This document shows, one piece after another, positions 2,943 to 62,793 of a stretch of 64,000 nucleotides of DNA. The translations under genes and the position numbers were made by a program. The stretch comes from Geminicoccaceae bacterium (GTDB lineage Bacteria; Pseudomonadota; Alphaproteobacteria; Geminicoccales; Geminicoccaceae), in NCBI GenBank assembly GCA_965217265.1, contig CBDCHP010000013.1:61709-125708 (forward strand), in the 5' to 3' direction. A model generated the notes under the pieces. That model did not search any database and had not been told where the DNA came from. It worked only from the letters and a program-made list of their open reading frames with translations. Numbering within the stretch: position 1 is the stretch's first letter; each line of letters starts with the position of its first letter.

Positions 2943-3096
2943 GCGTGGCATCGGGCGTGGCAAGGCCCCCGGTTTGAAGGGGCCGACCTACGCGCAACGG
3001 GGCTTTGGCAAGAGAATCTTAACCATCCGCGTGCGACCTTTCCGGCCGTGTCCCGACCAAGGCGGCTATTGCCGTCGCATCGAAGCGGTTCGTCGA

Positions 3097-5799
3097 ATGC
3101 CGTTGCGCCTCGCCAGTTTGTGCCTGCTCTTCCTCCTCCTCTGGCCCGCCTTGGGCCACGCCGGGGTCGTGGCGCGCGCCGACATCAAGGAGGGTCGCGC
3201 CCGGCTCGTCATCGAGTGGTCCGAGCCGGTCGAGGTGCAGCGTCGGGCGACGGCCAAGGGGTTCATGCTCACCTTCAGCCGGCCGCTGCCGGCGCTGGCC
3301 GATACGCTCGACCGGCTGCCGGGCGCGCTCGGCCGGCTGCAGATCCTGAACCCGACGGCGCTGCAACTCGTGCCAGCGCCGCACGTCACCGCCCGCGTCA
3401 ACCTGCTCGATAAGCGACGGCTCCTGATCGAGCTGTCGGCCGGGGGCGAGAAGGCTTCAAGCGACGTTGACGACGACGCGAAGGGCCCGCCGCGGCGGCT
3501 CGTGCCCGAGGTCACGGGCACCGACGACGGTCGCGCGGCCGGCAACGGCGCGGCGGGGGGCGCAAGCGATGCCGCCGCCGCGAAGGATCACCCCGACACG
3601 GTTAGGGCGCCGCGCCCTGAACGCCCGACGGTTGTGAAGCGCCTGTCGCTCGCGGCAGAAGCCACGGACGGAGGGGACGTCGACCTCGACTTTCGCGGCC
3701 TAGGCGGCACCCCGCCAGCGGCGGCGTTTGTACGCGGCGGCGAACTGCGCGTTCTATTCTTGGGCGAGGTCGCCGACATCGCGGCCGACCGTGCGGCCTT
3801 CGTTGAAGGTGCCGCCGACGTCATCCGTTCGGTACGGCAGGAGCCGCACCCACGCGCGACGATCCTGCGCTTCACCCTGGTCCGCCCGATCGAGGCGGTG
3901 ATGCGGCCGATCGAGGGCGGCTGGCGGCTGCGCCTGAGCGAGCGGCCGCTGCCGGCCAAGGCGACGCGGCTCGCGCCCTCGACCTCGGGCACGCTCAGGA
4001 TCGGCGCCGACGCGACCATTCCCTTCGTCGACCCAGTCGTCGGCGACCGGCTCGACGTCCTCTTGTTCGACGACGGGCCGATCATCCTGGAGCCCGCCGC
4101 CTACGTCGATTTCGAGGCCCTGCCCGCCTTGCAGGGCGGCGTCCTGCGCAGCAAGATCGACCGGCTCGACGTCGTCGGAACCAACGCCGGGGTGACCCTC
4201 TCCCGGCCCGGCGGCCTGCATTTGAGCGAACCGGGCGACGCCGCGTCCGGCCACACCCAATCGCCGGACGCCCGCCACGGCGCGGTCCCGCCGCCGGGGA
4301 CACCCTTGATCGGTCTCGCCGCGTTCGCGTCGCCCGACCCCGGCGCCTTCATCGCCCGACGGCAGGACTTGCTGCGCACGATCGGCGCCGACGCTTCGAA
4401 CGAGCGGCAGGGCCGCTGGGGCGACCTTGCCCGGCTGCACCTCGCGCACGGCCTCGCCGACGAGGCGAGCGGGCTGCTGGGGCCGAGCGCCGACGACGGC
4501 CTGGACGCGCTGCGCGGGGTGGCGGCAATCGTGGGTGGCAACACCGGCCTCGCCGCGACGAGGCTCGCGCCGTTCGCCGCCGTCGCCGACTCCGAACTCG
4601 ACCTCTGGCGCGGTGTGCTGGCGGCAAAAGAAGGCCGCTGGCGCGAGGCGGAGCGGCTGCTGGGCCCGGCCGAGGCGCTGTTGGGCACTTACCCGGCGAC
4701 CCTGAAGGCCGAGATCGGCCTACTGCGCGCCGAGGCCGCCCTTGAGACCGGCGCGATCGGTCGGGCGTTCACCCGCCTCCAAGCGCTGAAGGGGTCGGAC
4801 CTGACGCCCAAGGCGGGCGCCGAGCGCGCCCTGCTCGAAGCCCGCGCCCACGTCGCCGACGGCGACGCGAAGCGGGCGCAGGAATTGTGGCGCACGACGG
4901 CCGATGACGCACCCTTGGCCGAGCGGAGCGCGGCGCGGGCCGCCTTGGCCGCGAGCCTCTACGCCGCCGGCGAGATTAGCGCCGCCGACGCCGTCACCGT
5001 CTTGAACCCTGAAGCCCCCTCGTGGCGCGGGCTCGCCGAGGAAGCCGATCTCCTGCTGCGTTTGGCACGCCTGGAGCGCGACGCCAAGCACTACGGCGAC
5101 GCCCTCGACCACCTGCGCGACGCCGCCGAGCGTGCCGACGACCCGGCCCTGTCCCCGACGGCCGGGCGCGAGCTGGCATCGACACTGCGAGCGACCCTCG
5201 ACGCGACGGCCCCTCTCGCCCCGCTCGACCAGCTCTTGCTGCTGCGCCGCCACCAGGCCTATCTCCCCGACGACGCGGCGGGCGCCGACCTCGTGGCGAC
5301 CTTGGGCCGACGGTTGATCGCCGCCGGTTTCGCCGAGACCGGCAGGAGGCTGCTCGCGGGCGACACGGCCGAAGCTTCAGCCTTGAACGAAGCGAGTGGT
5401 TTTGCCCGCGTACCGGGACCGCGGGAGATCGAGCGGCTTTCGGCAGGCGAACTCCGCGACGCGGCGCGGGTCGCGTTCGCGGCCGAGGATTGGCGTGCAG
5501 TGGTCCAGGCCGCCCGCCCGCTCGTCACGGCCCTCGACCCGACGCAGACGCTCGACGCCGACGACGGCCTGCTCGTTGTGCAGCTCGCGATCGCCGAGGC
5601 GCGCGTCGGCAATGCCGCGGCCGCACGTAAGCTCACCGCCCGCTTCGCGCCGGCGCTCGACGAGCCGCGCTACCGGGCCCTCCTGAGCCTCGCCGCCGAC
5701 ACCCCCGACCTCGCCGGCGGGGTCCAGACGGCGCTGGGGGGCCTGGAGACGTGGCGGGCCAAGCAACGGCAACTCGACGCGCTCAAGGTGCTCCCCTGA
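3097..5799 (+). CDS. large secreted Ala/Leu-rich protein with helical-repeat (TPR-like) C-terminal half, function unknown
   Basis: ATG 3097 gives MPLRLASLCLLFLLLWPALGHAG, a Sec-type signal peptide. The N-terminal third has two beta-rich modules separated by a charged low-complexity linker. The C-terminal ~500 aa are Ala/Leu/Arg-rich helical repeats. GC3-rich codons run throughout. Confidence 0.6.
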   Translation: MPLRLASLCLLFLLLWPALGHAGVVARADIKEGRARLVIEWSEPVEVQRRATAKGFMLTFSRPLPALADTLDRLPGALGRLQILNPTALQLVPAPHVTARVNLLDKRRLLIELSAGGEKASSDVDDDAKGPPRRLVPEVTGTDDGRAAGNGAAGGASDAAAAKDHPDTVRAPRPERPTVVKRLSLAAEATDGGDVDLDFRGLGGTPPAAAFVRGGELRVLFLGEVADIAADRAAFVEGAADVIRSVRQEPHPRATILRFTLVRPIEAVMRPIEGGWRLRLSERPLPAKATRLAPSTSGTLRIGADATIPFVDPVVGDRLDVLLFDDGPIILEPAAYVDFEALPALQGGVLRSKIDRLDVVGTNAGVTLSRPGGLHLSEPGDAASGHTQSPDARHGAVPPPGTPLIGLAAFASPDPGAFIARRQDLLRTIGADASNERQGRWGDLARLHLAHGLADEASGLLGPSADDGLDALRGVAAIVGGNTGLAATRLAPFAAVADSELDLWRGVLAAKEGRWREAERLLGPAEALLGTYPATLKAEIGLLRAEAALETGAIGRAFTRLQALKGSDLTPKAGAERALLEARAHVADGDAKRAQELWRTTADDAPLAERSAARAALAASLYAAGEISAADAVTVLNPEAPSWRGLAEEADLLLRLARLERDAKHYGDALDHLRDAAERADDPALSPTAGRELASTLRATLDATAPLAPLDQLLLLRRHQAYLPDDAAGADLVATLGRRLIAAGFAETGRRLLAGDTAEASALNEASGFARVPGPREIERLSAGELRDAARVAFAAEDWRAVVQAARPLVTALDPTQTLDADDGLLVVQLAIAEARVGNAAAARKLTARFAPALDEPRYRALLSLAADTPDLAGGVQTALGGLETWRAKQRQLDALKVLP

Positions 5800-17886: not shown

Positions 17887-19482
<1,596 letters not shown>

Positions 19483-19484
19483 GA

Positions 19485-19630
19485 GAACGCTTCGCGTCCG
19501 CTGCGCGGGGCTTTTTCTTCTTTCTTTTTGCCAGTGTTAACGCAGGGGCTCACCGCGGCGCCGAGGGCCAATCTCGGACAAAGACGAAAAGAGAAAAAAG
19601 AGGCCCCGCGCCAGCGGACGCGAAGCGTTC
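19485..19630 (+). repeat. 146-bp imperfect palindromic intergenic element, copy 1
   Basis: GAACGCTTCGCGTCCGCTGCGCGGGGCTTTTTCTTCTTTCTTTTT ... AAAAGAGAAAAAAGAGGCCCCGCGCCAGCGGACGCGAAGCGTTC. The arms are complementary. It fills the whole spacer between convergent pckA and the 19630-20433 gene. Confidence 0.9.
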
Positions 19631-20433
19631 TAACCCCCCGGCAGCACCACGACCGTCGGCCGATCCGGCAGCGTCGCGGCCGAGACGGTGATCTCGGGCT
19701 CGGGCGACATCTCGACGGCGTAGCCGTCGAGATGGGCGAGGAAGCCTTTGAGGACCCCGGCCGAGAAGTAGTGCATCGGCAGGACCATCCGGGCACCCGT
19801 GACGCGAACCGACTCGGCCATCGCGGCGTGGCTCGACGTGTAGACCCCGTCCGCCGGCGCCATGACGATGTCGAGTTGACCGATCCAGCCGAGGTCGGCG
19901 TAAGAGAGCGCGTGGTGCAGGTGGCCGAGGTGGCCGATGCACAAGTCCGCCACCTCGAAGACGAAGATCGAGTTGCCGTCGACGATCCGGCCCTGCCCGA
20001 AGCCGCGAATGTCGCTCGGCACGCTGCGGATCAGCACGTCCTCGATCTGGACGTGGTGGTTGGCGGGACCGCCTTGGAGGTTCCAGCCGGGCAGGACGTG
20101 CGCGATCTTCGGATCGGGGCTGGTGGTGTAGTGCGTCGCGTGACCGCGGTTCATCGTCACGACGTCGGGCACGACGCCGGGGCCGGCGTTGCCGTCGTAG
20201 TCGGTGGCGATCGTCAGCCCGCCCGGGCTCTCGATCAGGAAGGTCGCGTGGCCGATGAAGCGCAAGCGCACCGCGTCACCCCCGGCCTGGAGCGGCACGT
20301 AGCGCACCGGCAGCGTCGTCGGCGCCGCGTTCGCCATGACGAGGCAGCGGCTGGGCGGGTAATCCTGGGCCATCGCGGCCGTCGCCGCGCCAAAGCAGCA
20401 AGCGAGCCCGAGCGTCAATCGCAGCACCATCAT
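19630..20433 (-). CDS. secreted MBL-fold metallo-hydrolase family protein
   Basis: Signal peptide MMVLRLTLGLACCFGAATAAMAQ; FIGHATFLIE and GHLGHLHH motifs typical of the UPF0173/MBL-like fold. Confidence 0.7.
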   Translation of the reverse strand: MMVLRLTLGLACCFGAATAAMAQDYPPSRCLVMANAAPTTLPVRYVPLQAGGDAVRLRFIGHATFLIESPGGLTIATDYDGNAGPGVVPDVVTMNRGHATHYTTSPDPKIAHVLPGWNLQGGPANHHVQIEDVLIRSVPSDIRGFGQGRIVDGNSIFVFEVADLCIGHLGHLHHALSYADLGWIGQLDIVMAPADGVYTSSHAAMAESVRVTGARMVLPMHYFSAGVLKGFLAHLDGYAVEMSPEPEITVSAATLPDRPTVVVLPGG

Positions 20434-48037: not shown

Positions 48038-49536
48038 GCTTCGCCCCCGACTTCGCCGCTTTCGGCGCCGCTTATAACGACGGCCGACCCGGCGTCGTCT
48101 GGACGAAGCTGGTCGCCGACCTTGAGACCCCCGTCGCCGCCATGCTCAAGCTCGCCGTCGGCCGGCCCTACAGCATCTTGTTGGAGAGCGTCACCGGCGG
48201 CGAGGTGCGCGGCCGCTACTCGATCATCGGCCTGAAGCCCGACCTCGTCTGGCGCGCCAAGGGCGGCCGGGTCGAGATCAACCGCACGGCCCGCGCCGAC
48301 CTCGACGCCTTCGAGCTTGAGGACGAGGCGCCGCTGCAAAGCCTGCGCCGCTTGATGGAGGCGAGCCGGATCGACCTGCCGCCGGGCCTGCCGCCGATGT
48401 CGGCCGGGCTGTTCGGCCACATGGGCTACGACATGGTGCGCGAGGTCGAGCGCCTGCCCGACGCCAACCCCGACCGCTTGAACCTGCCCGATGCTGTCTT
48501 CGTCCGCCCGACGTTGGTCGCGGTGTTCGACACGATCAAGGACGAGGTGACGCTCGTCACGCCCGTTCGGCCCGAGGAGGGCCTGAGCGCCGGGCGCGCC
48601 TACGATCGCGCCTGCGAGCGCCTCGCCGACGCCGTCGCCGATTTGGAGCGCGGCGTGCCGCACGAGCCGGCCCGCGGCGGCGGCAACCTGCCTGAGCCGG
48701 TCGCCAACATGGGCCGGGCCGACTATCACGCGATGGTCGAGCGGGCGAAGACATACATCATCGCGGGCGACATCTTCCAGGTCGTCCCCTCGCAGCGCTT
48801 CGAGACCCCCTTCGACCTGCCGCCGTTCGCCCTCTACCGGGCGCTGCGCCGCCTCAATCCCTCGCCATTCCTGTTCTACTTGGATTTGAAGGACGCCGTC
48901 CTGGTCGGCTCCAGCCCCGAGATCCTGGTCAGGGTCCAGGCCGGCACCGTCACGATCCGCCCGATCGCCGGGACGCGGCGGCGCGGCGCCGACGCCGCCG
49001 AGGACGCGGCGCTGGCGGCGGAACTGCTCGCCGACCCGAAGGAGAACGCCGAGCACCTGATGCTGCTCGACCTCGGCCGCAACGACGTCGGCCGCGTCGC
49101 CGCGGTCGGCACGGTGCGGGTCACCGAGCGGTCCTTGATCGAGCGCTACAGCCACGTCATGCACATTGTTTCCAACGTCGAAGGTAGGCTGCGCCAGGGA
49201 CGCGACGCGCTCGACGCCCTGATGGCGGGCTTTCCCGCCGGCACCGTCTCAGGCGCGCCGAAGGTGCGGGCAATGGAGATCATCGACGAGCTGGAGCCCG
49301 AGCGGCGTGGCTTCTACGGCGGTGCCGTCGGCTGGCTCGGCGCCAACGGCGACCTCGACACCTGCATCGCCTTGCGCACCGCCTTGGTCCGGGACGGTAA
49401 GATGTACGTCCAGGCCGGCGGCGGCGTCGTCGCCGACAGCGACCCCGAGGCCGAGTACCAGGAAAGCCGCAACAAGGCGATGGCGCTGCTCAAGGCGGCG
49501 GAAGAGGCGGTCAGGTTCGCGCGCTCGAACCGCTGA
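48034..49536 (+). CDS. trpE: anthranilate synthase component I
   Basis: GDIFQVVPSQRF, LNPSPFLFYL, and GAVGWLGANGDLDTCIALRT motifs; the GTG start overlaps the ppiD stop (GTGA). Confidence 0.95.
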   Translation: MSFAPDFAAFGAAYNDGRPGVVWTKLVADLETPVAAMLKLAVGRPYSILLESVTGGEVRGRYSIIGLKPDLVWRAKGGRVEINRTARADLDAFELEDEAPLQSLRRLMEASRIDLPPGLPPMSAGLFGHMGYDMVREVERLPDANPDRLNLPDAVFVRPTLVAVFDTIKDEVTLVTPVRPEEGLSAGRAYDRACERLADAVADLERGVPHEPARGGGNLPEPVANMGRADYHAMVERAKTYIIAGDIFQVVPSQRFETPFDLPPFALYRALRRLNPSPFLFYLDLKDAVLVGSSPEILVRVQAGTVTIRPIAGTRRRGADAAEDAALAAELLADPKENAEHLMLLDLGRNDVGRVAAVGTVRVTERSLIERYSHVMHIVSNVEGRLRQGRDALDALMAGFPAGTVSGAPKVRAMEIIDELEPERRGFYGGAVGWLGANGDLDTCIALRTALVRDGKMYVQAGGGVVADSDPEAEYQESRNKAMALLKAAEEAVRFARSNR

Positions 49537-49621
49537 ACGCTTCGCGTGCGCTGCCGCGCAGGCTTTCTCTTCTCTTTTTGCGACTCTTCGTTGGAGATCG
49601 GCCTCGACGCTGGAGCGCACG
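49535..49621 (+). repeat. palindromic intergenic element, copy 3, truncated (left arm and part of the centre only)
   Basis: GAACGCTTCGCGTGCGCTGCCGCGCAGGCTTTCTCTTCTCTTTTTGCGACT...GGCCTCGACGCTGGAGCGCACG. The polypurine right arm and the CGCGAAGCGTT terminus are missing. The first two nt overlap the trpE TGA. Confidence 0.75.
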
Positions 49622-49811
49622 ATAGGGGCGGGTTGCTCTCGGCGGCGAGAGCAAGTCTCACGATCGGCTGCATTTTTCTCCGGCATGGAGCCGTCCGAAC
49701 TCGACGGGCAGGGCCGCCTCGGCCACGCACCGTAATCAATCTGGATGTGATACTCCTCACATATTTTACAAACTTTTGGTTTACTATTTCCGGCGCATCA
49801 AACCCTATTCA

Positions 49812-50591
49812 ATGGATAGACACAGATGGCTTAAGATCTACGGAACTTCCGGCGCCGACACGCTCTACGGCACGAGCGGCAATGACGATATCGAGGGCCG
49901 CGGCGGGTATGATAGGATGTATGGGGGTAATGGAGACGACGGCATCTTCACCTACGACAATAAAGCTAATGTCTTTGTTGGCAATGCAAATATCTAAGCC
50001 GGTTACGGAAATGACTCAGTTGTTACAGGAAACGGTAACGATTATGTTTCAGGTGGGGGTGGTAATGATTATATCAGCAGTCTAGGGGGGCAACAACTAC
50101 CTGTACGGCGGCGACGGCAAGGATGGCATTTTCGGCGGCAACGGTCGTGACTATATTTCAGGCGGCGCGGGCAACGACACCCTTAAGGGCGCCGCCGGCG
50201 ACGACAAACTCGACGGTGGCACCGGCAACGACACCCTCAAGGGCGGCACCGGCACGGGCTACGATCATCTCACGGGCGGTGACGGCTTCGACCGCTTCGT
50301 GCTCACCAGCACCGACGACAGTCCGCACTTCAATGCCTAATCACCGACTATAACCACTATCAGGACTGGATCGACGTCAGCGGCATCGACGCTAACACCG
50401 GCGCTGCGGGCGACCAAGCCTTCACGCTCGTCGGCGAGACCGGCACCTTTACCGGGGCCGGGCAGATCGTCTACTCGAATTTTGCTGGCTACACCTACGT
50501 CAGCCTCAACATCGATGCCGATCAGTACGCCGAGATGTCGTTCTCCATCCAGGGTGAATTCAACCTGCAAAACAACGATTTCATCCTCTGA
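49812..50591 (+). pseudogene. RTX-type calcium-binding repeat protein, disrupted (1 nonsense codon plus 2 frameshifts)
   Basis: GGxGxD repeats can be read in three frames. Segment 1: 49812-49994, then TAA at 49995-49997. The same frame continues to a G6 run at 50085-50090, where the repeat sequence shifts frame (..YLYGGDGKDGIFGGNGRDYISGGAGNDTLKGAAGDDKLDGGTGNDTLKGG..). It shifts again near 50335-50340 into ITDYNHYQDWIDVSGIDANTGAAGDQAFTLVG...NNDFIL, ending at TGA 50589-50591. Confidence 0.75.
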
Positions 50592-50675
50592 CGCCGCAGC
50601 CTATGCCGCGACGGACCGCCCCCCGGCTGGACCGCTCCGGCCGGGGGCTTCGGGTTAGGAGGCCGTGCGGGCGCT

Positions 50676-51977
50676 TCAGTGCAGCGTCTCCGACCCGAGA
50701 ATGCCGGCCGTCTGGTCCTCGGGGCAGCCCTCCGCGCGGGCGCAGTCCTGCAGGGCGATCAACGCGCTCGCCGTGACGAATCGCACGCCGCGTCGCCGCG
50801 TCGCCTCGACCCATTCGTCGAGCGCGTCTAGGGTCGCCGGGCGCGGGTGGGCGATGCCGATGGCAAAGCCGAGGCGCAGCGCCGTGGCGCGCAAGGTTTC
50901 GAGTTGGCGCTCGATGACGGCCGGATCGGCGGCGTCGTCGATGAAGACGTCGCGCACGCCCGTCTTGAGCCTGGCCGCCCGCGCGGCGGCGGCGGCGACG
51001 CTGCGCGGCGTCGTCATGCTGTCGACGAAGGCGAGGCGGTGGCGGGCCAGGGCCGCCATCAGCGCCCTGCTCGCCGCGAGGTCGGCGGTGAAGCGGCTGC
51101 CCATGTGGTTGTTGACCCCGCTCACGCCGTCGAGGCGGGCCAGCGCCGCGTCCAGGCGGCGGGCGATCGCGTCGGCCGGCATGCTGACGTCGAGCGCCCC
51201 CTCGCCCGCGTCCTCCTTCTCGGCCTGCATCGGCATGTGGAGGAACACCTCGGCCCCCTCGCCCCGCGCCGCGGCCGACATCACCGGCGCCGCCTCGGGC
51301 TCGGGTAGGAACGAGAGGGTGAGCGGGACGTCGAGCCGCATCAAGCGGCGATAGGCCCGCCAGTCGTTGCCCATGTCGTCGATGACGAGCGCGATCGCCG
51401 GCGCACCCGGGGGCATCACGGCCGCTGGCTCGGGCGGGGATGCGACGCCGCCGTCCAGCGGCAGCACGTCGATGCCCAGGGTCCGCTCGGCCACCATCAT
51501 TGACCAGACCGTATCGGGCGGTCCGCCGCCGTCGCTGAGCTCGGTCTCGACCTCGTCCGTCGCGGGCGCGGGCGCGGGCGCCGCTGGTTCGAGTGCTCGA
51601 ACCTCCGCCGGAGCGGGCGCCGCCGGTTCGGGCACCGGGACCGCGGCCGGCGAAGGCGCGGCTTCGGGCACGCGCCCCGGCGGTGGGGTCGCCGCCCCGC
51701 CCCGCGTCGCGGCGGCCGGGTGACGGGCGGGATCGCGCTCGCGTACCATCGCTTCCAGCGCGCGCTCCCTCGCTTGGTTCTTCGCCTCGACGATCGAGCC
51801 GGCGCCGGTGGCACCGCCCTCTTGCAGCACGAATACGACAATGCCGCCGCCGACGACGGCGGCGAGGACGACGCCGAGCAGTGCTGCGTGGCGCGGCCGC
51901 AGCCCCTCGATCGCGTCCGCCAGCCGGACGAGGCACCGGGCAAGCGCCCTGCGCAGCCATGCGGGTAGACCGATCAC
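50676..51977 (-). CDS. divergent polysaccharide deacetylase family protein (YibQ-like) with N-terminal TM anchor and Pro/Ala-rich linker
   Basis: C-terminal ~250 aa: IALVIDDMGND...LSFLP...FLHMPMQ...GVNNHMGSRFT...FVDSMTT...RDVFIDD is the YibQ/divergent deacetylase pattern. Confidence 0.75.
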   Translation of the reverse strand: MIGLPAWLRRALARCLVRLADAIEGLRPRHAALLGVVLAAVVGGGIVVFVLQEGGATGAGSIVEAKNQARERALEAMVRERDPARHPAAATRGGAATPPPGRVPEAAPSPAAVPVPEPAAPAPAEVRALEPAAPAPAPATDEVETELSDGGGPPDTVWSMMVAERTLGIDVLPLDGGVASPPEPAAVMPPGAPAIALVIDDMGNDWRAYRRLMRLDVPLTLSFLPEPEAAPVMSAAARGEGAEVFLHMPMQAEKEDAGEGALDVSMPADAIARRLDAALARLDGVSGVNNHMGSRFTADLAASRALMAALARHRLAFVDSMTTPRSVAAAAARAARLKTGVRDVFIDDAADPAVIERQLETLRATALRLGFAIGIAHPRPATLDALDEWVEATRRRGVRFVTASALIALQDCARAEGCPEDQTAGILGSETLH

Positions 51978-52149
51978 GCGTCAGGATTTCCAAAAGGGCG
52001 GAGAGCGGGCGTCGTTATCATCGGTTGGTTGATAAACCGTTTGTACCGTTCTAGCCAAGCCCAAGCCACCGACTTCGTCGGGCTTGACGGCCACACGCGG
52101 CCGGGGTTTGCTTCAAGCCCCCCGATGATGCGCAGACTAAGGCCCCTCG

Positions 52150-52737
52150 ATGCTGCTCCTGCTTGACAATTACGACAGCTTCACCTGGAACCTCTACCAC
52201 TATCTCGGCGAACTCGGCGCCGCGGTCGAGGTCAAGCGCAACGACGCGATCGAGGTGCAAGAGGCGCTGGCGGCGGGCTTTGATGGCATCGTCGTCTCGC
52301 CCGGCCCATGCGACCCCGACCGGGCCGGTATCTCGTTGCCGCTGATCAAGGCCGCCGCCGGCCGGGTGCCGGTATTCGGCGTCTGCCTCGGCCACCAGGC
52401 GATCGCCCAGACGTTCGGCGCCACGATCGGCCTCGCCCCCTCGCCAATGCACGGCAAGGTGAGCGCCATCCGCCACGACGGCAGCGGCGTCTTGAAGGGT
52501 CTCCCCTCACCGTTCGACGCCACCCGCTACCACTCGCTCGTCGGCCTGCCTGATACCTTGCCCGACACGCTGGTCGCGACGGCGCAGAGCGAGGACGGCG
52601 CCATCATGGCGCTGCGCCACCGCGACTTGCCGATCCACGGCGTGCAGTTCCATCCCGAGAGCATCGCCAGCGAGCACGGCCACCAGATCCTGCGCAACTT
52701 CCTCGATCTCTGCCATAAGCGACCGCTCGCCACATGA
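52150..52737 (+). CDS. trpG: anthranilate synthase component II (glutamine amidotransferase)
   Basis: MLLLLDNYDSFTWNLYHYL, GVCLGHQAI, HGVQFHPES motifs. Confidence 0.95.
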   Translation: MLLLLDNYDSFTWNLYHYLGELGAAVEVKRNDAIEVQEALAAGFDGIVVSPGPCDPDRAGISLPLIKAAAGRVPVFGVCLGHQAIAQTFGATIGLAPSPMHGKVSAIRHDGSGVLKGLPSPFDATRYHSLVGLPDTLPDTLVATAQSEDGAIMALRHRDLPIHGVQFHPESIASEHGHQILRNFLDLCHKRPLAT

Positions 52738-53762
52738 CGGCCGAGCTGGAGCGCTTCAAGCGGCTGATCGCCAAGGCGGCGACCGGGGCACCGCTTGCCT
52801 ACGCCGAGGCCGAGGAGGCGTTCGGCCTGATGATGGCCGGCGACGCGACGCCTGCGCAGATGGGGGGCCTGTTGATGGCGATGCGGGTGCGCGGCGAGAC
52901 CGTGGACGAGATCGCCGCCGGGGCCGCCAGCTTGCGCGCCAGGATGCGCCGCATCGAGGCACCCGACGACGCGATCGACATCGTCGGCACCGGCGGCGAC
53001 GATTCGGGCACGCACAACATCTCGACCGCGTGTGCCATCGTCGCGGCCGGCTGCGGCCTTCACGTCGCCAAGCACGGCAACCGCGGCCTCTCCTCGCGCT
53101 CGGGCACGGCCGACGTGCTCAAGGCGCTCGGCGTCGATCTGGAGTGCCCCTTCGATCGCATCGAGCGGGCGATCGAGGAGGCCGGGATCGGCTTCATGAT
53201 GGCGCCGCGCCACCACGGCGCCATGCGCCACGTCGCGGGGCCACGGGTCGAACTCGGCACGCGCACGATCTTCAATCTCTTGGGTCCGCTCGCCAACCCG
53301 GCCGGGGTGAAGCGGCAGTTGACCGGCGTGTTCGCGCGCGATTGGGTCGTGCCCCTGGCCGAGGCGCTCGGGCGCTTGGGCGCCGAGCGCGCCTGGGTCG
53401 TGCACGGCGCCGACGGGCTCGACGAGGTCAGCCTGACCGGCCCCACCTTCGTCGCCGAGTGGCGTCGCGGCGAACTGCGGACCTTCGAGATCGCGCCCGA
53501 GGATGCCGGCCTCGAACGCTGCACGCTCGACGACCTTAAAGGGGGCGATCCCGAGACCAACGCCGCCGCGATCCGGGCCCTCCTCGGCGGCGAGCGCGGC
53601 CCCTTGCGCAACGTCGTCCTGCTCGGCACGGCGGCGGCCCTCGTCGTCGCCGGGCGGGTCGATGATCTAAGGTCGGGGGTTGCCCTCGCGGCCGAGGCGA
53701 TTGACGAGGGTCGGGCGCGAACGGCGCTGGAGCGGCTAGTCCGCATCACGGGTGGCGCATGA
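52734..53762 (+). CDS. trpD: anthranilate phosphoribosyltransferase
   Basis: [18 protein letters not shown] and [21 protein letters not shown]-like motifs; ATGA overlap with trpG. Confidence 0.95.
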
Positions 53763-54556
53763 ACGACGTCCTGGCCGAGATCTGCGCCGTCAAGCGCGAC
53801 CACGTTCGAGCGAAGAAGGCGCGGACAAGCGAGGCCGACCTGCTCGCCGCGGCCCGCGACGTCGAGGCACCGCGCGGCTTCGCCGCGGCGCTGCGGCGGG
53901 CGACGGAGGCGGGGGGCTTTGGCCTCATCGCCGAGATTAAGAAGGCGAGCCCGAGCCGGGGCGTGATCCGCGCCGACTTCGACCCGGCAGCACTGGCCCG
54001 CGCCTACGCCGCCGGCGGGGCCGCCTGCCTCTCGGTCCTGACCGACGCGCCCTACTTCCAGGGCAACGACGCCTATCTCGGCGCGGCGCGGGCGGCGGTG
54101 GCGCTGCCGTGCCTGCGGAAGGACTTCATGCTCGACCCCTACCAAGTTGTCGAGGCCAGGGCGCTCGGGGCGGACTGCATCCTCGTCATCCTGGCCGCCG
54201 TGGACGACGCGCTGGGCTCCGACCTCGTCCGGGCGGCGCACGACCTTGGCATGGACGTGCTGGCCGAGGCGCACGACGCGAACGAGCTTGATCGAGCCCT
54301 CAAGCTCGACGCCGACCTGATCGGGATCAACAACCGCGACCTGAAGACGCTCAAGGTCGATTTGGGCACGACCGAGCGATTGGCGGCTATCGTGCCCCCC
54401 GATCGCGTCCTCGTCGCCGAGAGCGGCCTTGAGGCCCACGCCGACTTGGAACGCCTAGCCCTGGTCGGCGCGCGGGCGTTCCTGGTCGGCGAGTCGCTGA
54501 TGCGCGCCGACGACGTCGCGGCGGCGACCAGGGCGCTCCTGGGCCGGGCGGCGTGA
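53759..54556 (+). CDS. trpC: indole-3-glycerol phosphate synthase
   Basis: [32 protein letters not shown] motifs. Confidence 0.95.
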
Positions 54557-55029
54557 GCGGCCTCACCCACATCGACGCCGAGGGCAACGCCGTCATGGTC
54601 GACGTCTCGGCCAAGGACGTGACCGGGCGGACCGCGACCGCGAAGGGTCTGGTCCGCATGGCGCCGGCGACCCTAGAACGGATCGAGGCGCGCGGCTTCA
54701 AGAAGGGCGACGTGCTCAGCATCGCCCAACTGGCCGGGATCATGGGGGCGAAGCGCACCGCCGACTTGATCCCCTTGTGCCACCCGCTGCCGCTCGCCTC
54801 GGTCAAGGTGACGCTGCGGGCTCTGGCCGAAGAAGCGGCGGTCGAGATCGAGGCGACCTGCAAGGTGGACGGCAAGACCGGCGTCGAGATGGAGGCGCTG
54901 ACCGCCGTCGGCGTCGCGGCGCTCACCGTCTACGACGTGTGCAAGGCGGTCGACAAGGACATGCGCATCACCGACATCCGCCTCGTCCACAAGGCCGGCG
55001 GCCGCTCCGGCACCTACCGGGCCGAGTGA
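54553..55029 (+). CDS. moaC: cyclic pyranopterin monophosphate synthase MoaC
   Basis: [46 protein letters not shown]-like motifs. Confidence 0.95.
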
Positions 55030-55030
55030 G

Positions 55031-56251
55031 GTGGTGGGGCTCCTCAACGTCGCCGAGGCGCGGGTCCGCACGCTAACACTGGCACCCGAACTCGGGCATG
55101 AGTGGGTGGGCTTGGGCGAGGCTTTCGGTCGCGTCCTCGCCCGGCCGCTCGACGCCCGCGCCGACAAGCCGGCGCTCGCGGTCTCGGCGATGGACGGCTA
55201 CGCCTGCCGCGCCGCCGACACGTCCGACCCGTCGCGGCCCCTGACGCTGGTTGGCGAGGTGCCGGCGGGCGGGCGGCACGGGCGCGCGCTCGAAGCCGGC
55301 CAGACGGTGCGCATCTTCACCGGGGCACCCCTGCCCGAGGGGACCAACGCGATCCTGATCCAGGAGGACGCGCGGGCCGAGGGGACGCGCGTCTACCCGC
55401 TCGAAGCCGTGACGGCCGGCCGGTTCGTCCGCCCGGCCGGGCTCGACTTCAAGGCGGGCGATTTGGGCCTCGAACCGGGCCGCGTCCTCGACCCGCTGGC
55501 GCTCGGCCTCGCGGGCGCGCTCGGCCACGTCTGGCTGCCGGTGCGGCAGCGTCCGTTGGTCGCGATCCTCGGTACCGGCGACGAACTGGTCCGGCCCGGC
55601 GAGCCGGCGGCGGCGCACCAGACGGTGAGCACGAACGGGATCGCGCTCGGCGGCCTCGTTCGCGCCTGGGGCGGCGAGCCGCGCGACCTCGGCATTGCCG
55701 CCGACCGACCGGACGCGCTCGAAGCCGCCTTGGGGGGCGCCCTCGACGCCGATCTCATCCTCACCTCGGGCGGCGCCTCGGTCGGCGACTACGACCTCGT
55801 GCGGCGGACGGCCGGGGGACTGGGGCTCGAACTCGACTTCTGGAAGATCGCGATGCGGCCCGGCAAGCCGCTCATCGCCGGCCGGGTCGGCGGCAGGGCC
55901 TTCTTGGGCCTGCCCGGCAACCCCGTCTCGGCCGCGGTCTGCGCCATCGTCTTCGTCCGGGCGATGCTGCGCCGCTCGCTCGGGCTCGACCCCTCCCTGC
56001 CCTGGACCCGCCTGCCGCTCGCCAGAGCCCTCGATGCCGGCGGAACGCGCGAAGAGTACCTGCGCGCGACTTACGTCGACCACAAGGGCGGGCGGACGGT
56101 CGATCCGGCCGCGCAGCAGGACAGCTCGATGCTGGCGACGCTCGGGCGGGCCGACGCGCTGGTCCGCCGCGACGCGGGCGATGGCGCGCGTTTTGCCGGC
56201 GAGGAGGCCCCGGTCCTCGACCTGCGCGCGGTCCTCAATCCCCTCGCCTGA
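55031..56251 (+). CDS. moeA: molybdopterin molybdotransferase MoeA
   Basis: AVSAMDGYA, ILTSGGASVGDYD, LPGNPVSA motifs; GTG start 1 nt after the moaC stop. Confidence 0.92.
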   Translation: MVGLLNVAEARVRTLTLAPELGHEWVGLGEAFGRVLARPLDARADKPALAVSAMDGYACRAADTSDPSRPLTLVGEVPAGGRHGRALEAGQTVRIFTGAPLPEGTNAILIQEDARAEGTRVYPLEAVTAGRFVRPAGLDFKAGDLGLEPGRVLDPLALGLAGALGHVWLPVRQRPLVAILGTGDELVRPGEPAAAHQTVSTNGIALGGLVRAWGGEPRDLGIAADRPDALEAALGGALDADLILTSGGASVGDYDLVRRTAGGLGLELDFWKIAMRPGKPLIAGRVGGRAFLGLPGNPVSAAVCAIVFVRAMLRRSLGLDPSLPWTRLPLARALDAGGTREEYLRATYVDHKGGRTVDPAAQQDSSMLATLGRADALVRRDAGDGARFAGEEAPVLDLRAVLNPLA

Positions 56252-56279
56252 GCCCCGGCGGCGCCTTGCCATGCGATAA

Positions 56280-56305
56280 GAACCAAACTAGAACATTTCA
56301 TGATC
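56280..56305 (+). promoter_or_regulatory. alphaproteobacterial SOS (LexA) box GAAC-N7-GAAC, followed by a third degenerate half-site (N7-GATC)
   Basis: GAAC (56280-83) CAAACTA GAAC (56291-94) ATTTCAT GATC (56302-05), 30-55 nt upstream of the lexA TTG start. Confidence 0.8.
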
Positions 56306-56334
56306 TAGGCCGCCCGCCTTGAGGACGCCGACCC

Positions 56335-57015
56335 TTGCTCACCCAGCGCCAGTTGCAGCTCTTGCAGTTCATCCATGCCTACCAGACCGAGAAGGGCGTG
56401 CCGCCCTCTTTCGACGAGATGCGGGCATCCCTCAGGCTCCGCTCCAAGTCAGGTATCCACCGACTGATCTCGGGGCTGGAGGAGCGCGGCTACATCCGTC
56501 GCCTCGCCTACCGCGCCCGGGCGATTGAGGTGGTCCGCCCGCCGCTCGAAGTGACCGAGGGCGGCGCTAAGGGGGGGGCCAAGGTCGTGCGCCCCAACTT
56601 CAAGCCGCAACGCCACGAGGACGAGGCGGCGTCGCTCAACCGGCTGCCGCTGCTCGGCCGAATCGCCGCCGGCACGCCGATCGAGGCGCTCGCCGACGGC
56701 AGCACCTCGGTCGACGTGCCGAGCCTGCTCATGGGCGAGGGCGAGCACTACGTCGTCCAGGTCTTAGGCGAGTCGATGATCGAGGCCGGCATCCAGGACG
56801 GCGACCTCGCCGTCATCCAGCGCGCCGACGAGGCGCAGAGCGGCGAGATCGTCGTGGCGCTCATCGACGACCGCGAGGTAACGCTCAAGCGCCTGCGGCG
56901 CAAGCACGCCTCGATCGCGCTGGAGCCGGCCAACCCCGCCTTCGAGACCCGCATCTTCGGCCCGCAGCGGGTCAAGGTGCAAGGCCGCCTCGTTGGGCTG
57001 ATGCGTCGCTACTAA
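56335..57015 (+). CDS. lexA: transcriptional repressor LexA
   Basis: LTQRQLQLLQFI...PPSFDEM wHTH domain, an Ala-Gly cleavage region (RIAAGTP), and an S24 peptidase domain (GESMIEAGI...VTLKRL). TTG start behind GAGGA. Confidence 0.95.
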   Translation: MLTQRQLQLLQFIHAYQTEKGVPPSFDEMRASLRLRSKSGIHRLISGLEERGYIRRLAYRARAIEVVRPPLEVTEGGAKGGAKVVRPNFKPQRHEDEAASLNRLPLLGRIAAGTPIEALADGSTSVDVPSLLMGEGEHYVVQVLGESMIEAGIQDGDLAVIQRADEAQSGEIVVALIDDREVTLKRLRRKHASIALEPANPAFETRIFGPQRVKVQGRLVGLMRRY

Positions 57016-57161
57016 CCGGCCGCCGCGCGAACGGATCGGGCACGGATCGACGGGGGTTGGACGGGCTCGCGCCGGTCCTCGCCCCGCCGTCGCTTCGTGC
57101 CGGCGCGTGGAAGCGGTGTGGTTGTCGAGCCACTTAGTGGCGATCAACCGTGACTTTTCTT

Positions 57162-57186
57162 GGAACAGCAACCTGACAAGTCCGTT
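57162..57186 (+). promoter_or_regulatory. EcfG-type general stress promoter, GGAAC-N16-CGTT
   Basis: GGAAC 57162-66, a 16-nt spacer, CGTT 57183-86, 58 nt upstream of ATG 57244. Confidence 0.6.
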
Positions 57187-57243
57187 CTGCCGGAGGACGT
57201 GGCTACGGCCGCTCAAATCTCGCCAAAAGGAAGCATCTCAAAC

Positions 57244-58218
57244 ATGGTCACGACCTATACCGAGCGCGGTCCGGGACATACCGATACCGACTACACCGAT
57301 GTCCGCACCACCCACGTCGATCGCGGTCCGACGCTGACGAGCAACGTCCGCCGCGTCTCCTGGGGCGCCATCCTCGCCGGCACGATCCTCGTCTTGACCA
57401 TTCAGGTCATGCTCGGCCTGCTCGGTCTGGGCATCGGCCTTGCCTCGATCGACCCGGCGGCGAACGACACGCCGTCCGCTTTCACCCTCACCTCGACCGC
57501 CGGGATCTGGGCGATCGTGACGGTGCTGATCGCCACCTTCGTCGGCGCCTGGGTCGCCGCCCGCCTCGCCGGCAGCCCGAGCAACACCGACGGCCTCCTG
57601 CACGGCATCGTGACCTGGGCGCTCTCGACCCTGGTCGCCGTCTGGCTGCTTACCAGCGGTGCCAGCGCCATCATCAGCGGCGCGTTCGGCGCGCTCGGCA
57701 ACTCGATCCAGGGCATCACCAGCGCCGTCCAATCGGTGGCGCCGAACTCGCTCTCGGCCCTGCCGCCCGGCCTGGAGCAGCCGGCGCGGCAATTGCTGCA
57801 GCAGGGCACGAACCAAGCCCAGCAGACGGGCCAGCAGGCGCAGCAGCAAGCGCAGCAGGCAGCGCAGGACGTGCGTCAGGCAACCGGCGAGCAGAACATT
57901 ACCGCCGCCATGGGCGAGGTTCTGGCTGGCGTGCAGGAGGATGCCTCGCAAGAAGAGCGGCAGGCGGCCCTGCAGGTCATCTCCGATCAGGCCGGCATCT
58001 CGGAGCAGCAGGCCGAAGAGCGCCTGACTGAGTTCCAGCAGTCCTACGATCAGGCCGTCGCCGAGGTCGAGCAGCGCACGCAGCAGGCGGCTGACGCCCT
58101 GTCCGGCACGGCGTTCGCCACCTTCGTTGCCCTCCTCTTGGGCCTCATCGCCGGCGCCATCGGCGGCCGTCTCGGCCGCCCGTCGCACACCGTCGAGGCC
58201 GAAAATTACGCGACCTGA
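57244..58218 (+). CDS. hypothetical integral membrane protein with Gln-rich coiled segment
   Basis: ATG 57244 behind AAGGAAG. About four TM helices (residues ~40-170 of the product), then QQGTNQAQQTGQQAQQQAQQAAQD and an acidic helical region, then a final TM helix (FATFVALLLGLIAGAIGG). I recognise no family. Confidence 0.6.
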   Translation: MVTTYTERGPGHTDTDYTDVRTTHVDRGPTLTSNVRRVSWGAILAGTILVLTIQVMLGLLGLGIGLASIDPAANDTPSAFTLTSTAGIWAIVTVLIATFVGAWVAARLAGSPSNTDGLLHGIVTWALSTLVAVWLLTSGASAIISGAFGALGNSIQGITSAVQSVAPNSLSALPPGLEQPARQLLQQGTNQAQQTGQQAQQQAQQAAQDVRQATGEQNITAAMGEVLAGVQEDASQEERQAALQVISDQAGISEQQAEERLTEFQQSYDQAVAEVEQRTQQAADALSGTAFATFVALLLGLIAGAIGGRLGRPSHTVEAENYAT

Positions 58219-58248
58219 GCGTTCTTCACGTTTTCACTCGTCGAGCTT

Positions 58249-58286
58249 CGGGCCGGACGGCGACCGTCCGGCCCGAACTTTATCTT
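58249..58286. terminator. bidirectional stem-loop between convergent genes (12-bp GC stem, 3-nt loop)
   Basis: CGGGCCGGACGG-CGA-CCGTCCGGCCCG at 58249-58275, followed by AACTTTATCTT. Lies between the stop at 58218 (+) and the icd stop at 58297 (-). Confidence 0.6.
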
Positions 58287-58296
58287 GAGCCGGCTA

Positions 58297-59508
58297 TCAG
58301 GCCAGCTTCTTTTGCAGGTTCGCCTCCAGCGCGTCGAGGAACTGCTGCGTCGTCAGCCAGGGCTGTTCCGGGCCGATCAGGAGGGCCAGATCCTTGGTCA
58401 TCTGGCCGGCCTCGACCGTGTCGACGCACACCGTCTCGACCGCCTTAGCGAACTCCTCCACCTCGGGCGTGTCGTCGATCTTGCCGCGGTAGGTGAGCGC
58501 ACGGGTCCAGGCGAAGATCGAAGCGATCGGGTTGGTCGAGGTCTGCTTGCCCTTCTGGTGCTCGCGGAAATGGCGCGTCACCGTGCCGTGCGCGGCCTCG
58601 GCCTCGATCGTGTTGCCGTCCGGGGTCATCAGGACCGAGGTCATCAGACCGAGCGAGCCGAAGCCCTGCGCCACCGTGTCGGACTGCACGTCGCCGTCGT
58701 AGTTCTTGCACGACCAGACGAAGCCGCCCGACCACTTCAAGGCCGCCGCCACCATGTCGTCGATCAAGCGGTGCTCATAAGAGATGCCCTTGGAGGCGAA
58801 CTGGTCCTTGAACTCGGCCTCGTATATCTCCTCGAAGATGTCCTTGAAGCGGCCGTCATAGGCTTTCAGGATCGTGTTCTTGGTCGAGAGGTAGAGCGGG
58901 TAGCCGCGCGCCAGGGCGTAGTTCATCGAGGCCCTGGCGAAGTCGCGGATCGAGCCGTCGAGGTTGTACATTGCCATCGCCACGCCGGCGTCGGGGGCCT
59001 CAAAGATCTCGTGCTCGATCACGTCGCCCTGCTCGGGCTCGAAACGGATCGTGAGCTTGCCCTTGCCCGGAAACAAGAAGTCGGTGGCACGGTACTGGTC
59101 ACCGTAGGCGTGACGGCCGACGATGATCGGCTGCGTCCAGCCCGGCACGAGGCGGGGCACGTTCTCGCAGATGATCGGCTCGCGAAAGATCGTGCCGCCG
59201 AGGATGTTCCGGATCGTGCCGTTCGGCGAGCGCCACATCTTCTTGAGGGCGAATTCCTTCACCCGCCCCTCGTCGGGGGTGATCGTCGCGCACTTGACCC
59301 CGACGCTGTGCTCCTTGATCGCGTTCGCCGCGTCGACCGTGATCTGGTCGTCGGTCTCGTCGCGCTTCTCGACGCCCAGGTCGTAGTAGAGCAGGTCGAT
59401 GTCGAGGTAGGGCAGGATCAGCTTTGTCTTGATCATGTCCCAGATGATCCGGGTCATCTCGTCGCCGTCGATCTCGACGATCGGGTTCTTAACCTTGATC
59501 TTGCTCAT
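58297..59508 (-). CDS. icd: NADP-dependent isocitrate dehydrogenase (dimeric, eukaryote-like type)
   Basis: [23 protein letters not shown]..., [18 protein letters not shown] motifs; 403 aa. The longer ORF in the track (to 59937) crosses the repeat element and dnaQ and is rejected. Confidence 0.95.
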
Positions 59509-59539
59509 GGCGTTTGTCCTCTCGTGGGTAAAGTTGATT

Positions 59540-59684
59540 GAACGCTTCGCGTGCGCTCGGCGCGCGGCCTTTTTCTCTTCTTTTTTGCAACTTGCAACGA
59601 GACTGGCCTCAACGCTGAAGCTAGCCTCGGATAAAGATAAAAAAGAAGAAAAGAGGCCGTGCGCCGAGCGCACGCGAAGCGTTA
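59540..59684 (+). repeat. 145-bp imperfect palindromic intergenic element, copy 4
   Basis: GAACGCTTCGCGTGCGCTCGGCGCGCGGCCTTTTTCTCTTCTTTTTT ... ATAAAAAAGAAGAAAAGAGGCCGTGCGCCGAGCGCACGCGAAGCGTTA. Lies between the dnaQ stop and the icd start. Confidence 0.9.
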
Positions 59685-60347
59685 CACACCCCAAATCGGG
59701 TTCTTCAGCTTGGCGATGAAGGCGGCGTGCGCGGCCTGCTCGGCCTCGGGCACGGGGAACTCGCGCGGCTCGCGGTACGCCCGCGCGACCCGCTTCACCG
59801 CCGCAGCGCGCACGGCGAGATCGAGGCCGACCTGTCGCCCGCCGCACAAGTGCAGGTAGACCTCGGCCAGCAGTTCGCAGTCGAGGAGGGCGCCGTGCTT
59901 GACGCGGGCCGAGGTGTCGACCTCGAAGCGGCGGCATAAGGCATCGAGGTTGTTGGGACTGCCAGGAAAACGCTGCTGCGCGCGCTGAAGCGTGTCCACC
60001 GCCCGCTCGCGCGACAGGAGGGGTTTCTTCAGCCGTGCGAGTTCGTGGTTTAGAAAGCGCAGGTCGAAGGTGGCGTTGTGGATCACGAGCGGGTCGTCGC
60101 CGATGAAGGCGAGGAAGGGCTCGGCGATCGCGGCGAAGACCGGCTTGTCGACGAGTTGATCGTCGCCGATCCCGTGGATCTTGAACGCGTCCTCGGGCAT
60201 CGCCCGCTCAGGGTTGATGAACTGGTGGTAGGTGCGGCCGGTCGCGACCTTGTTGACCAGTTCGACGGCACCGATCTCGACGATCCGGTGCCCCTCGCGC
60301 GGGTCGAGACCGGTCGTCTCGGTGTCGAGCACCACTTCGCGCTGCAT
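59682..60347 (-). CDS. dnaQ: DNA polymerase III subunit epsilon (3'-5' exonuclease)
   Basis: Exo motifs [37 protein letters not shown]. Confidence 0.95.
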
Positions 60348-62646: not shown

Positions 62647-62793
62647 GCACGCTTTGCGTCCGCTGCGCGGGGCTTTCCTTTCTTCTTTTTTGCAACTTTG
62701 ACTGGGGCTGGCCTCGGCGTTCGTGCCAGTCTGGGAACAACGAGCAAAAAAGAGAAGAAAAAGCCCGCGCGGCGGGCGCACGCGTAAGCGTTC
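62647..62793 (+). repeat. 147-bp imperfect palindromic intergenic element, copy 5
   Basis: GCACGCTTTGCGTCCGCTGCGCGGGGCTTTCCTTTCTTCTTTTTT ... GCAAAAAAGAGAAGAAAAAGCCCGCGCGGCGGGCGCACGCGTAAGCGTTC. Fills the spacer between the convergent DUF4142 gene and gatB. Confidence 0.9.

Follow-up and report, generated by a model that had tools for sequence, protein, structure and literature searches.

A 64,000-nt stretch of the genome of a Geminicoccaceae bacterium (contig CBDCHP010000013.1; hereafter the window) carries an imperfect palindrome of 141-146 nt, present as four full copies and one half copy, and these copies are members of a real, dispersed repeat family. The family is previously undescribed and belongs to a well-known class of small bacterial repeats. 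The reading that best fits its architecture and its position relative to genes, and one to which we give slightly better than an even chance, is that of lineage-restricted REPIN/MITE-like extragenic palindromic repeats that would serve as compact two-way transcription terminators.

Detection of the repeat family

A profile hidden Markov model (HMM) built from the four full copies, with a covariance model as a second scan, recovered all five copies where the first-pass annotation had placed them (full copies, E = 1e-39 to 1e-41; half copy, 49535-49627, E = 1e-8 to 1e-9; Table 1). No further copy was found in the 64-kb window by the HMM, and the covariance model agrees. The 15-mer terminus occurs nine times in the window with no more than one mismatch, every time at the end of an element; with two or three mismatches it is found 22 times against 26.6 expected, that is, at chance level. 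Its 10-mer lies inside elements only, and a role as a DNA uptake sequence was rejected on this distribution.

The invariant core of the element is ACGCTTCGCG...CGCGAAGCGT (19487-19628 in copy 1). The earlier claim of shared termini stands for this core and fails for the outer GA/TC, which is not present in every copy; in addition, copy 5 carries mismatches in both termini. Other details of the original description were borne out, including the C/G polymorphism at terminus position 13, which is matched by G/C in the opposite arm, and the polypyrimidine run lying opposite a polypurine run. A multiple alignment likewise separates two types of centre, one in copies 1 and 2 (the latter inverted) and the other in copies 3-5.

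Table 1. Copies of the palindromic element in the window and the parts of copy 1, with their genomic settings
Feature	Position	Strand	Setting	Flanking codons and counterparts in relatives
Copy 1, full	19485..19630		Whole spacer between convergent pckA and a metallo-beta-lactamase-fold gene (minus strand)	Stops: pckA 19480-19482, metallo-beta-lactamase-fold gene 19630-19632; ortholog in ERZ25070591, L018:11602-11746
Copy 1, left arm	19489..19529	+	In the path of pckA transcripts; looks like an intrinsic terminator	
Copy 1, asymmetric centre	19530..19585		Type GTGTTAACGCAGG...CTCGGACAAAG, common to copy 2; short internal hairpin	
Copy 1, right arm	19586..19626	-	In the path of the minus-strand gene; from terminator scan and local fold	
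Copy 2, full, centre inverted relative to copy 1	32650..32797		Between convergent cinA and a polyketide-cyclase/RatA-like gene (minus strand)	Stops: cinA 32647-32649, RatA-like gene 32796-32798, overlapping the element terminus
Copy 3, half element	49535..49621	+	Left arm and part of the centre, beginning at the trpE TGA (49534-49536); hairpin then T tract for trpE transcripts; right half replaced by unrelated DNA	Half copy also in ERZ25070591 (L019:20201-20294); full copy in ERZ20067608 (L020:4055-4197)
Copy 4, full	59540..59684		Between co-directional minus-strand genes, a dnaQ-like exonuclease gene and icd; best palindrome (-102.8 kcal/mol)	Overlaps the dnaQ-like exonuclease TAA (59682-59684); ends 31 nt ahead of the icd start codon (59508)
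Copy 5, full	62647..62793		Between convergent DUF4142 gene and gatB (minus strand)	Stops: DUF4142 gene 62644-62646, gatB TGA 62792-62794, abutting the core; ortholog in ERZ25070591, L019:6452-6595

Architecture and position relative to genes

The unit consists, in order, of a 25-nt GC-rich imperfect palindrome, a T-rich pyrimidine tract of ~18 nt, a variable, hairpin-forming centre of ~50 nt, a purine tract and the 25-nt palindrome in inverted form. Full copies in the window form long hairpins with folding energies of -68 to -103 kcal/mol (z = -4.5 to -14.6 against dinucleotide shuffles), and the half copy does not form a stable hairpin (z = -0.8 and -1.5 against shuffles of the same kind). 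Across 18 copies, the long-range hairpin comprises 33 consensus pairs, 13 of which show compensatory changes.

Each arm also folds on its own. Among 42 arms, conservation is high over the first 25 nt, several arms of the Geminicoccaceae metagenome-assembled genome (MAG) HKST-UBA17 being identical to the left arm of copy 1 at 25 of 25 positions. Most local stems have 8-10 bp and enclose a loop of 4-5 nt, the folds averaging -13.4 kcal/mol, and in nearly all of the arms a run of 4-7 T begins 0-5 nt past the stem and continues as the pyrimidine tract. In copy 1 the left-arm hairpin GCTTCGCGT-CCGCT-GCGCGGGGC (19489-19511) is followed by the pyrimidine/T tract TTTTTCTTCTTTCTTTTT (19512-19529); a terminator scan calls nine pairs, a loop of 5 and the tail TTTTTCTTCT, the local fold reaches -12.8 kcal/mol, and the T run adjoins the hairpin without a gap. 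In the right arm, a hairpin of 10 pairs (19626-19603) leads on the minus strand into CTCTTTTTTCTCTTTTC (-16.0 kcal/mol), the tract that is seen on the plus strand as the polypurine run. A consensus terminator scan calls both arms in every full copy, inward-facing without exception, and nearly all hits in the 64 kb that combine at least 7 pairs with a T tail come from the elements. Within the local stem, pairing holds in 96.6% of cells for the inner 5-bp helix; at one position of this helix the pair is C-G in 18 arms and G-C in 9, a switch reached by no shuffle.

Placement follows the direction of the neighbouring genes. Of 33 elements examined, most have one or both termini close to the stop codon of an inward-reading gene (-5 to +12 nt), and at several convergent pairs both stop codons abut the element, which then forms the entire spacer. 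By a crude gene call of the window, with a script that missed copy 4, elements occupy four of seven convergent junctions and none of six divergent ones; copy 4 itself falls in the co-directional class (32 junctions), between the dnaQ-like gene and icd. The half copies in which orientation can be assessed (copy 3, L019:20201-20294, L005, L006 and L011) retain the gene-proximal arm, with the hairpin preceding the T tract. Exceptions to a position downstream of genes are copies upstream of icd and a copy between edd and eda.

Together these features suggest how the element would act. The whole unit would have been copied to many intergenic sites by a trans-acting transposase that recognizes its ends. 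RNA polymerase leaving a gene would transcribe the near arm first, which would fold into a GC hairpin of 8-10 bp with the U tract immediately behind it, the geometry of a Rho-independent terminator. Because the unit is palindromic, the opposite strand would present the same order of modules, so that a single element would halt transcription from both members of a convergent pair ahead of any overlap between the two transcripts. Any read-through RNA, containing both arms, would fold into a duplex of ~60 bp, a possible substrate for RNase III or a possible block to 3' exonucleases. Among the roles proposed by the first-pass annotation, that of a REP/BIME-like terminator fits best, and it can be sharpened, in that each arm alone has intrinsic-terminator geometry.

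Distribution, drift and rearrangement

Three relatives with ~90% nucleotide identity or 88-97% icd protein identity were compared. In ERZ25070591, a 4.5-Mb contig of ~90% nucleotide identity, an element is present at all four comparable orthologous sites (copies 1, 3, 4 and 5). ERZ20067608 has a full copy after trpE and another just upstream of icd. The sister lineage ERZ25071705 retains a degenerate copy between ahpC and icd, and in ERZ28655694 the ahpC-icd copy is deleted except for its last ~15 nt. An exact-pattern scan covering one genome per GTDB species returned HKST-UBA17 as the only genome among the matches listed, with at least 17 loci. Its PEPCK is 73% identical to that of the window and the terminal 25 nt of its elements are almost unchanged; HKST-UBA17 probably belongs to another genus.

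Full copies in HKST-UBA17 measure 127-144 nt, the best preserved being near-perfect palindromes including the centre. These centres vary between copies and yet remain self-complementary, whereas those in the window are only partly palindromic. Single-arm copies (about six half-copy loci) and versions of 85-100 nt also occur. At L013:2478-2513 and L004:4452-4481 of the same MAG, directly after stop codons, lie minimal hairpins of 30-36 nt that consist of the two termini only (ACGCTTCGCGTCCGC-loop-GCGGACGCGAAGCGT); these are REP-sized deletion derivatives that have lost their T tracts.

No copy was found in 21 kb of Geminicoccus roseus, where the conserved dnaQ-icd spacer (164 nt) is unrelated in sequence, or in 11.5 kb of Marinimicrococcus, save for one doubtful arm-like stretch. 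The latter, L059:11407-11494 of Marinimicrococcus flavescens, is a GC-rich hairpin followed by TTCTCTTTTCCTCTTTCGTC at the very end of a contig, downstream of icd (covariance-model E 0.69), and may represent a relative that has diverged from the family and caused the assembly to break here. On these distributions, and among the GTDB matches listed, the family looks confined to part of the Geminicoccaceae.

The first-pass annotation had not recognized a named family, and none emerged from the databases and literature searched. Rfam gave no match at gathering thresholds anywhere in the window; below threshold there were only eukaryotic miRNA-precursor models (at most 41 bits against thresholds of 67-96), which reflect a generic long hairpin. 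Blastn in distant mode found no match among PLSDB plasmids, and exact-pattern scans of JGI metagenome contigs gave 0 matches. In IMG/VR, 35 contigs contain the 16-mer terminus; nhmmer finds an element in none of them, and these were therefore rejected as chance matches. In the literature searched, the 10-mer terminus appears in unrelated papers only and nothing was found on Geminicoccus repeats.

In the window lineage the centres are non-palindromic, and their identity is higher between loci (0.71) than between the inner halves of one copy (0.60); the whole unit has thus been copied, as opposed to palindromes arising in place. For the same reason, in-place homogenization of the two arms was rejected as a general rule, the inner halves matching other copies better than their own partner. 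In the orthologous pair for copy 1 both arms have changed in concert, a pattern that resembles conversion by a different copy of the family more than homogenization in place. Between the window and ERZ25070591, identity is 77-88% for orthologous copies and 83-90% for fourfold-degenerate sites in the genes beside them. Individual copies thus drift at or above the neutral rate, and purifying selection on primary sequence is not seen at these orthologous sites. The end consensus of the family is nevertheless nearly unchanged between genera, and this combination of drifting copies with constant ends argues for a trans-acting enzyme that recognizes the ends. REPINs have been described as a population of non-autonomous elements selected to keep replicating, in which the consensus is kept while copies decay (PMC3337134); drift with conserved ends is the pattern that would be expected of such elements here.

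Comparison with relatives also reveals rearrangements within and between elements. The asymmetric centre had been taken to give each copy an orientation. That orientation is not stable, as seen in copy 4, the centre of which is inverted relative to the flanking genes in ERZ25070591 (identity 0.82 flipped versus 0.77 unflipped), the HMM favouring for this ortholog the strand opposite to synteny. In ERZ20067608 a segment of ~9 kb (window 50667-59583; L020:5313-14257) is inverted relative to both the window and ERZ25070591; it contains icd, lexA, moeA, moaC, trpC, trpD, trpG and a polysaccharide deacetylase gene, and the alignment breaks inside copy 4 and inside copy 3. Comparison of L058 with L021 reveals an internal deletion that leaves ~15 nt of the element, not an empty site, and deletion derivatives are common (30-100 nt forms in HKST-UBA17). 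Such alignments show the long inverted repeats acting as substrates for recombination and deletion.

Directly after the half copy 3, the window contains a stretch (49720-50600) that looks markedly richer in AT and encodes RTX/hemolysin-type calcium-binding GGxGxD repeats. These are interrupted by stop codons and frameshifts, which marks the stretch as a pseudogene or foreign insert. At the same position ERZ20067608 carries an HWE-type histidine kinase gene between two elements (L020:4055-5355).

Known repeats and competing explanations

In architecture, the closest known elements are REPINs, doublets of REP sequences that form hairpins and are thought to be mobilized, like REP and BIME sequences, by RAYT tyrosine transposases (Bertels and Rainey, PMC3116915, PMC3337134). 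Like REPINs, the element is strictly extragenic, without coding capacity or an obvious target duplication, and its consensus is preserved while individual copies decay. Several marks of a REPIN (two inverted imperfect palindromes with a spacer, the whole unit forming one long hairpin; single-arm remnants, or 'singlets', as decayed forms beside doublets; a spacer that varies in sequence and retains hairpin potential), of a MITE (terminal inverted repeats, a length below about 300 bp, no coding capacity) and of an intrinsic terminator (a GC-rich, short-loop hairpin directly followed by a U tract and, for most copies, sense orientation just downstream of a gene) are present. Unlike in REPINs, each end palindrome is followed on its 3' side by an adjoining T tract internal to the unit, so that each end forms a complete terminator-like module; nor are the Geminicoccaceae among the described host families. 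A/T runs beside some REPINs have been suggested as a sign of co-option for attenuation (PMC3337134). Membership in the GTAG- or CGTC-type REPs was rejected, as the published rules for head, stem, loop and tail (PMC3733652) do not apply: the ends, (N)ACGCTTCGCGT(C/G)CGC..., lack GTAG, do not begin the stem with A/T and are without a CCA tail.

The closest counterpart in concept is SPRITE of Streptococcus pneumoniae, an interspersed repeat with a stem and a U-rich tract that was proposed in 2011 to have been co-opted as a terminator (PMC3049150). The two have in common a strong enrichment between convergent genes and near the 3' ends of coding sequences, and for neither has a target duplication or parent insertion sequence been identified. 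By contrast with SPRITE, which is AT-rich, has a single 18-bp stem and resides in a Firmicute, the palindrome described here has two inward modules, each a hairpin plus U tract, on either side of a central spacer, and its host is a GC-rich alphaproteobacterium; the two sequences are not similar.

Correia elements have terminal repeats of ~26 bp, a TA target duplication, an IHF site and promoters. Their sequences are unrelated to the family described here, for which none of these features was found in the scanned copies and flanks. The element does resemble the bacterial MITEs Correia (Neisseria) and ERIC/YPAL (enterobacteria; reviewed in PMC10969869 and PMC3184786) in being an imperfect palindrome, of the about 100-170 bp class, in transcribed intergenic DNA, with long RNA hairpins. 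For Correia, RNase III cleavage has been shown and inversion of elements reported (PMC10969869). The first-pass proposal of a MITE-like element is upheld in part, by the inverted termini, small size and whole-unit copying, and not by the search for a consistent target-site duplication or a parent insertion sequence, neither of which was seen in the DNA examined.

Like an ordinary bidirectional terminator, the element is one compact, symmetric unit that would putatively end both convergent genes. An ordinary bidirectional intrinsic terminator between convergent genes has one hairpin, with the A tract and the T tract outside it. Here, by contrast, the tracts lie inside, in the order T tract, centre, A tract on either strand, so that transcription from either side would meet a separate hairpin; the stop points predicted for the two directions are opposed without overlapping, and the element is a dispersed repeat, not a locally evolved site. 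A hairpin at window 58247-58277, which is not an element, offers a useful contrast: its strong 14-bp GC stem (TTCGGGCCGGACGG-CGA-CCGTCCGGCCCGAA) with a weak T tail lies in a spacer of 78 nt that separates icd from the upstream gene convergent with it, and it resembles an ordinary bidirectional terminator. Integron attC sites, imperfect palindromes bounded by RYYYAAC ... GTTRRRY core sites in arrays of promoterless cassettes, were also considered and rejected: the ends here read GAACGC...GCGTTC followed by pyrimidines or stop codons, and the flanks are convergent housekeeping genes (pckA, trpE, icd, gatB).

Several observations count against two-way terminators carried by a mobile repeat. Termination, and with it the RNA processing and the mode of transposition, we infer from sequence alone. 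The z-score of the local folds against mononucleotide shuffles averages only -1.5, GC-rich arms folding well anyway; the outer 9-bp helix is without covariation, and the switch in the inner helix may be a single ancestral event that divides two subfamilies. Some copies are awkwardly placed for a strong terminator, namely copy 4, only 31 nt upstream of icd, HKST-UBA17 copy L016:6688-6827 between edd and eda, and the L020 copy between a divergent kinase gene and icd. Two awkward copies (L020:5208-5355 and L021:5792-5928) have a weak T tract in the arm facing the downstream gene, which fits the terminator model and proves nothing. The signs of mobility are indirect. The flanks of the 42 arms contain no consistent target-site duplication; the one trend there is a weak bias towards purine/A-T at 1-3 nt beyond the core. 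No clean empty site was found in the relatives compared, and no new insertion in ~40 kb of window-to-relative comparison. In agreement with the first-pass annotation, no transposase or integrase domain occurs in the scanned window open reading frames (ORFs) or in the gene tables of syntenic loci; no transposase was found in ~300 kb of related DNA, including between paired HKST-UBA17 elements, where the flanked genes are those for acyl-CoA dehydrogenases, alpha-amylase, edd/eda, a LysR regulator and others. Finally, 21.6 kb of HKST-UBA17 around pckA holds no copy, and element density is thus uneven.

The copy at L016:6688-6827 has a perfect 63-bp stem. The two genes that it separates, edd and eda, are co-transcribed in many bacteria; it may split or attenuate that operon.

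A purely selfish REPIN/MITE without host function, whose insertions elsewhere have been purged by selection and whose T/A tracts serve the element itself (transposase recognition, DNA melting), is a possible but doubtful alternative. It would sit well with the evolution of orthologous copies at or above the synonymous rate, with the many copies that are decayed, halved or internally deleted, with those found upstream of genes or within likely operons, and with the enrichment of other small repeats and insertion sequences between convergent genes through such purging (PMC3049150). It would not lead one to expect a hairpin in 42 of 42 arms with the T run placed directly after it, as in a terminator, in nearly all, stop codons within 0-12 nt, or half copies that usually keep the gene-proximal arm in terminating orientation. 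These last remnants also bear on a role at the RNA level without termination, in which a long hairpin in the 3' untranslated region would block 3'-to-5' exonucleases or be cut by RNase III, thereby setting mRNA stability: half copies and single arms persist at gene ends though unable to form the long hairpin, the full hairpin would arise only when the first arm fails to terminate, and the conserved T tracts are left unexplained. Effects on mRNA stability have been reported for REP, ERIC and Correia elements (Correia and ERIC precedents are summarized in PMC10969869), and the very stable hairpins of at least 60 bp, with compensatory changes, and the tolerance of copies between co-directional genes would be accounted for; overall we regard this role as improbable.

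Still less can be said for a structural or protein-binding element in DNA, be it a cruciform, a polypurine/polypyrimidine triplex or a site for nucleoid proteins or gyrase that affects supercoiling or chromosome organization. The long perfect inverted repeat, the homopurine/homopyrimidine tracts of ~18 nt, the strong conservation of the end sequences across genera and the coincidence of elements with inversion and deletion endpoints could be cited for it. Such a role does not predict the tight link to stop codons and gene reading direction, however, long inverted repeats recombine without any dedicated function, and a protein partner or structural signs would be conjecture; we consider it very unlikely. 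The small structured RNA suggested by the first-pass annotation, as an independently transcribed gene, has a stable conserved structure in its favour. No promoter-like site is present in or beside the scanned copies, which begin at or within a few bases of the stop codons of inward-reading genes on both sides; no Rfam family matches, the symmetry makes the strands equivalent, and sequence turnover at orthologous sites is fast. We hold this to be the most improbable of the explanations considered and do not retain the suggestion.

The terminator reading can be taken a step further, to an actively maintained, mobile terminator cassette: a REPIN-like replicator whose transposase-recognized ends would themselves be complete intrinsic terminators, with a single-copy transposase keeping copies near-identical across genera and delivery occurring preferentially within the few bases past stop codons. 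This is a tentative proposal that we think rather unlikely to be right in full; if it is, two-way terminators would be acquired and renewed by transposition, not by local evolution.

The flanking genes are those of core metabolism (pckA, cinA, trpE, icd, a dnaQ-like exonuclease gene, gatB, the pyruvate dehydrogenase complex, enolase and others), and the best named homologues come from the Geminicoccaceae. Elsewhere in the window, a gene whose product contains a bacterial archaeo-eukaryotic release-factor domain (baeRF family 3; 958-2265) is followed by a fusion gene for ribosome-hibernation (S30AE/HPF) and cold-shock domains (2298-2942) and then by a 941-aa ORF without a Pfam match (2974-5799).

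For genome analysis, the elements have several consequences. They break MAG assemblies, at least 3 of the 17 listed HKST-UBA17 loci starting or ending inside a copy. Gene callers run ORFs through them: the icd frame continues upstream across copy 4 without meeting a stop, which yields a 546-aa ORF (58297-59937) that is spurious, and over-long icd products in public databases, P0121 (586 aa) and P0127 (463 aa), probably have the same cause. Their coincidence with inversion and deletion endpoints between close relatives makes them useful markers of rearrangement.

The palindromes add an undescribed repeat family to the Geminicoccaceae, a poorly studied alphaproteobacterial family. Their architecture predicts that a 145-nt palindrome stops transcription from both sides at two separate points facing each other. 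If this is true, the element would be a compact part of natural origin for two-way termination in GC-rich hosts and a clean case of a selfish repeat doubling as gene-boundary machinery.

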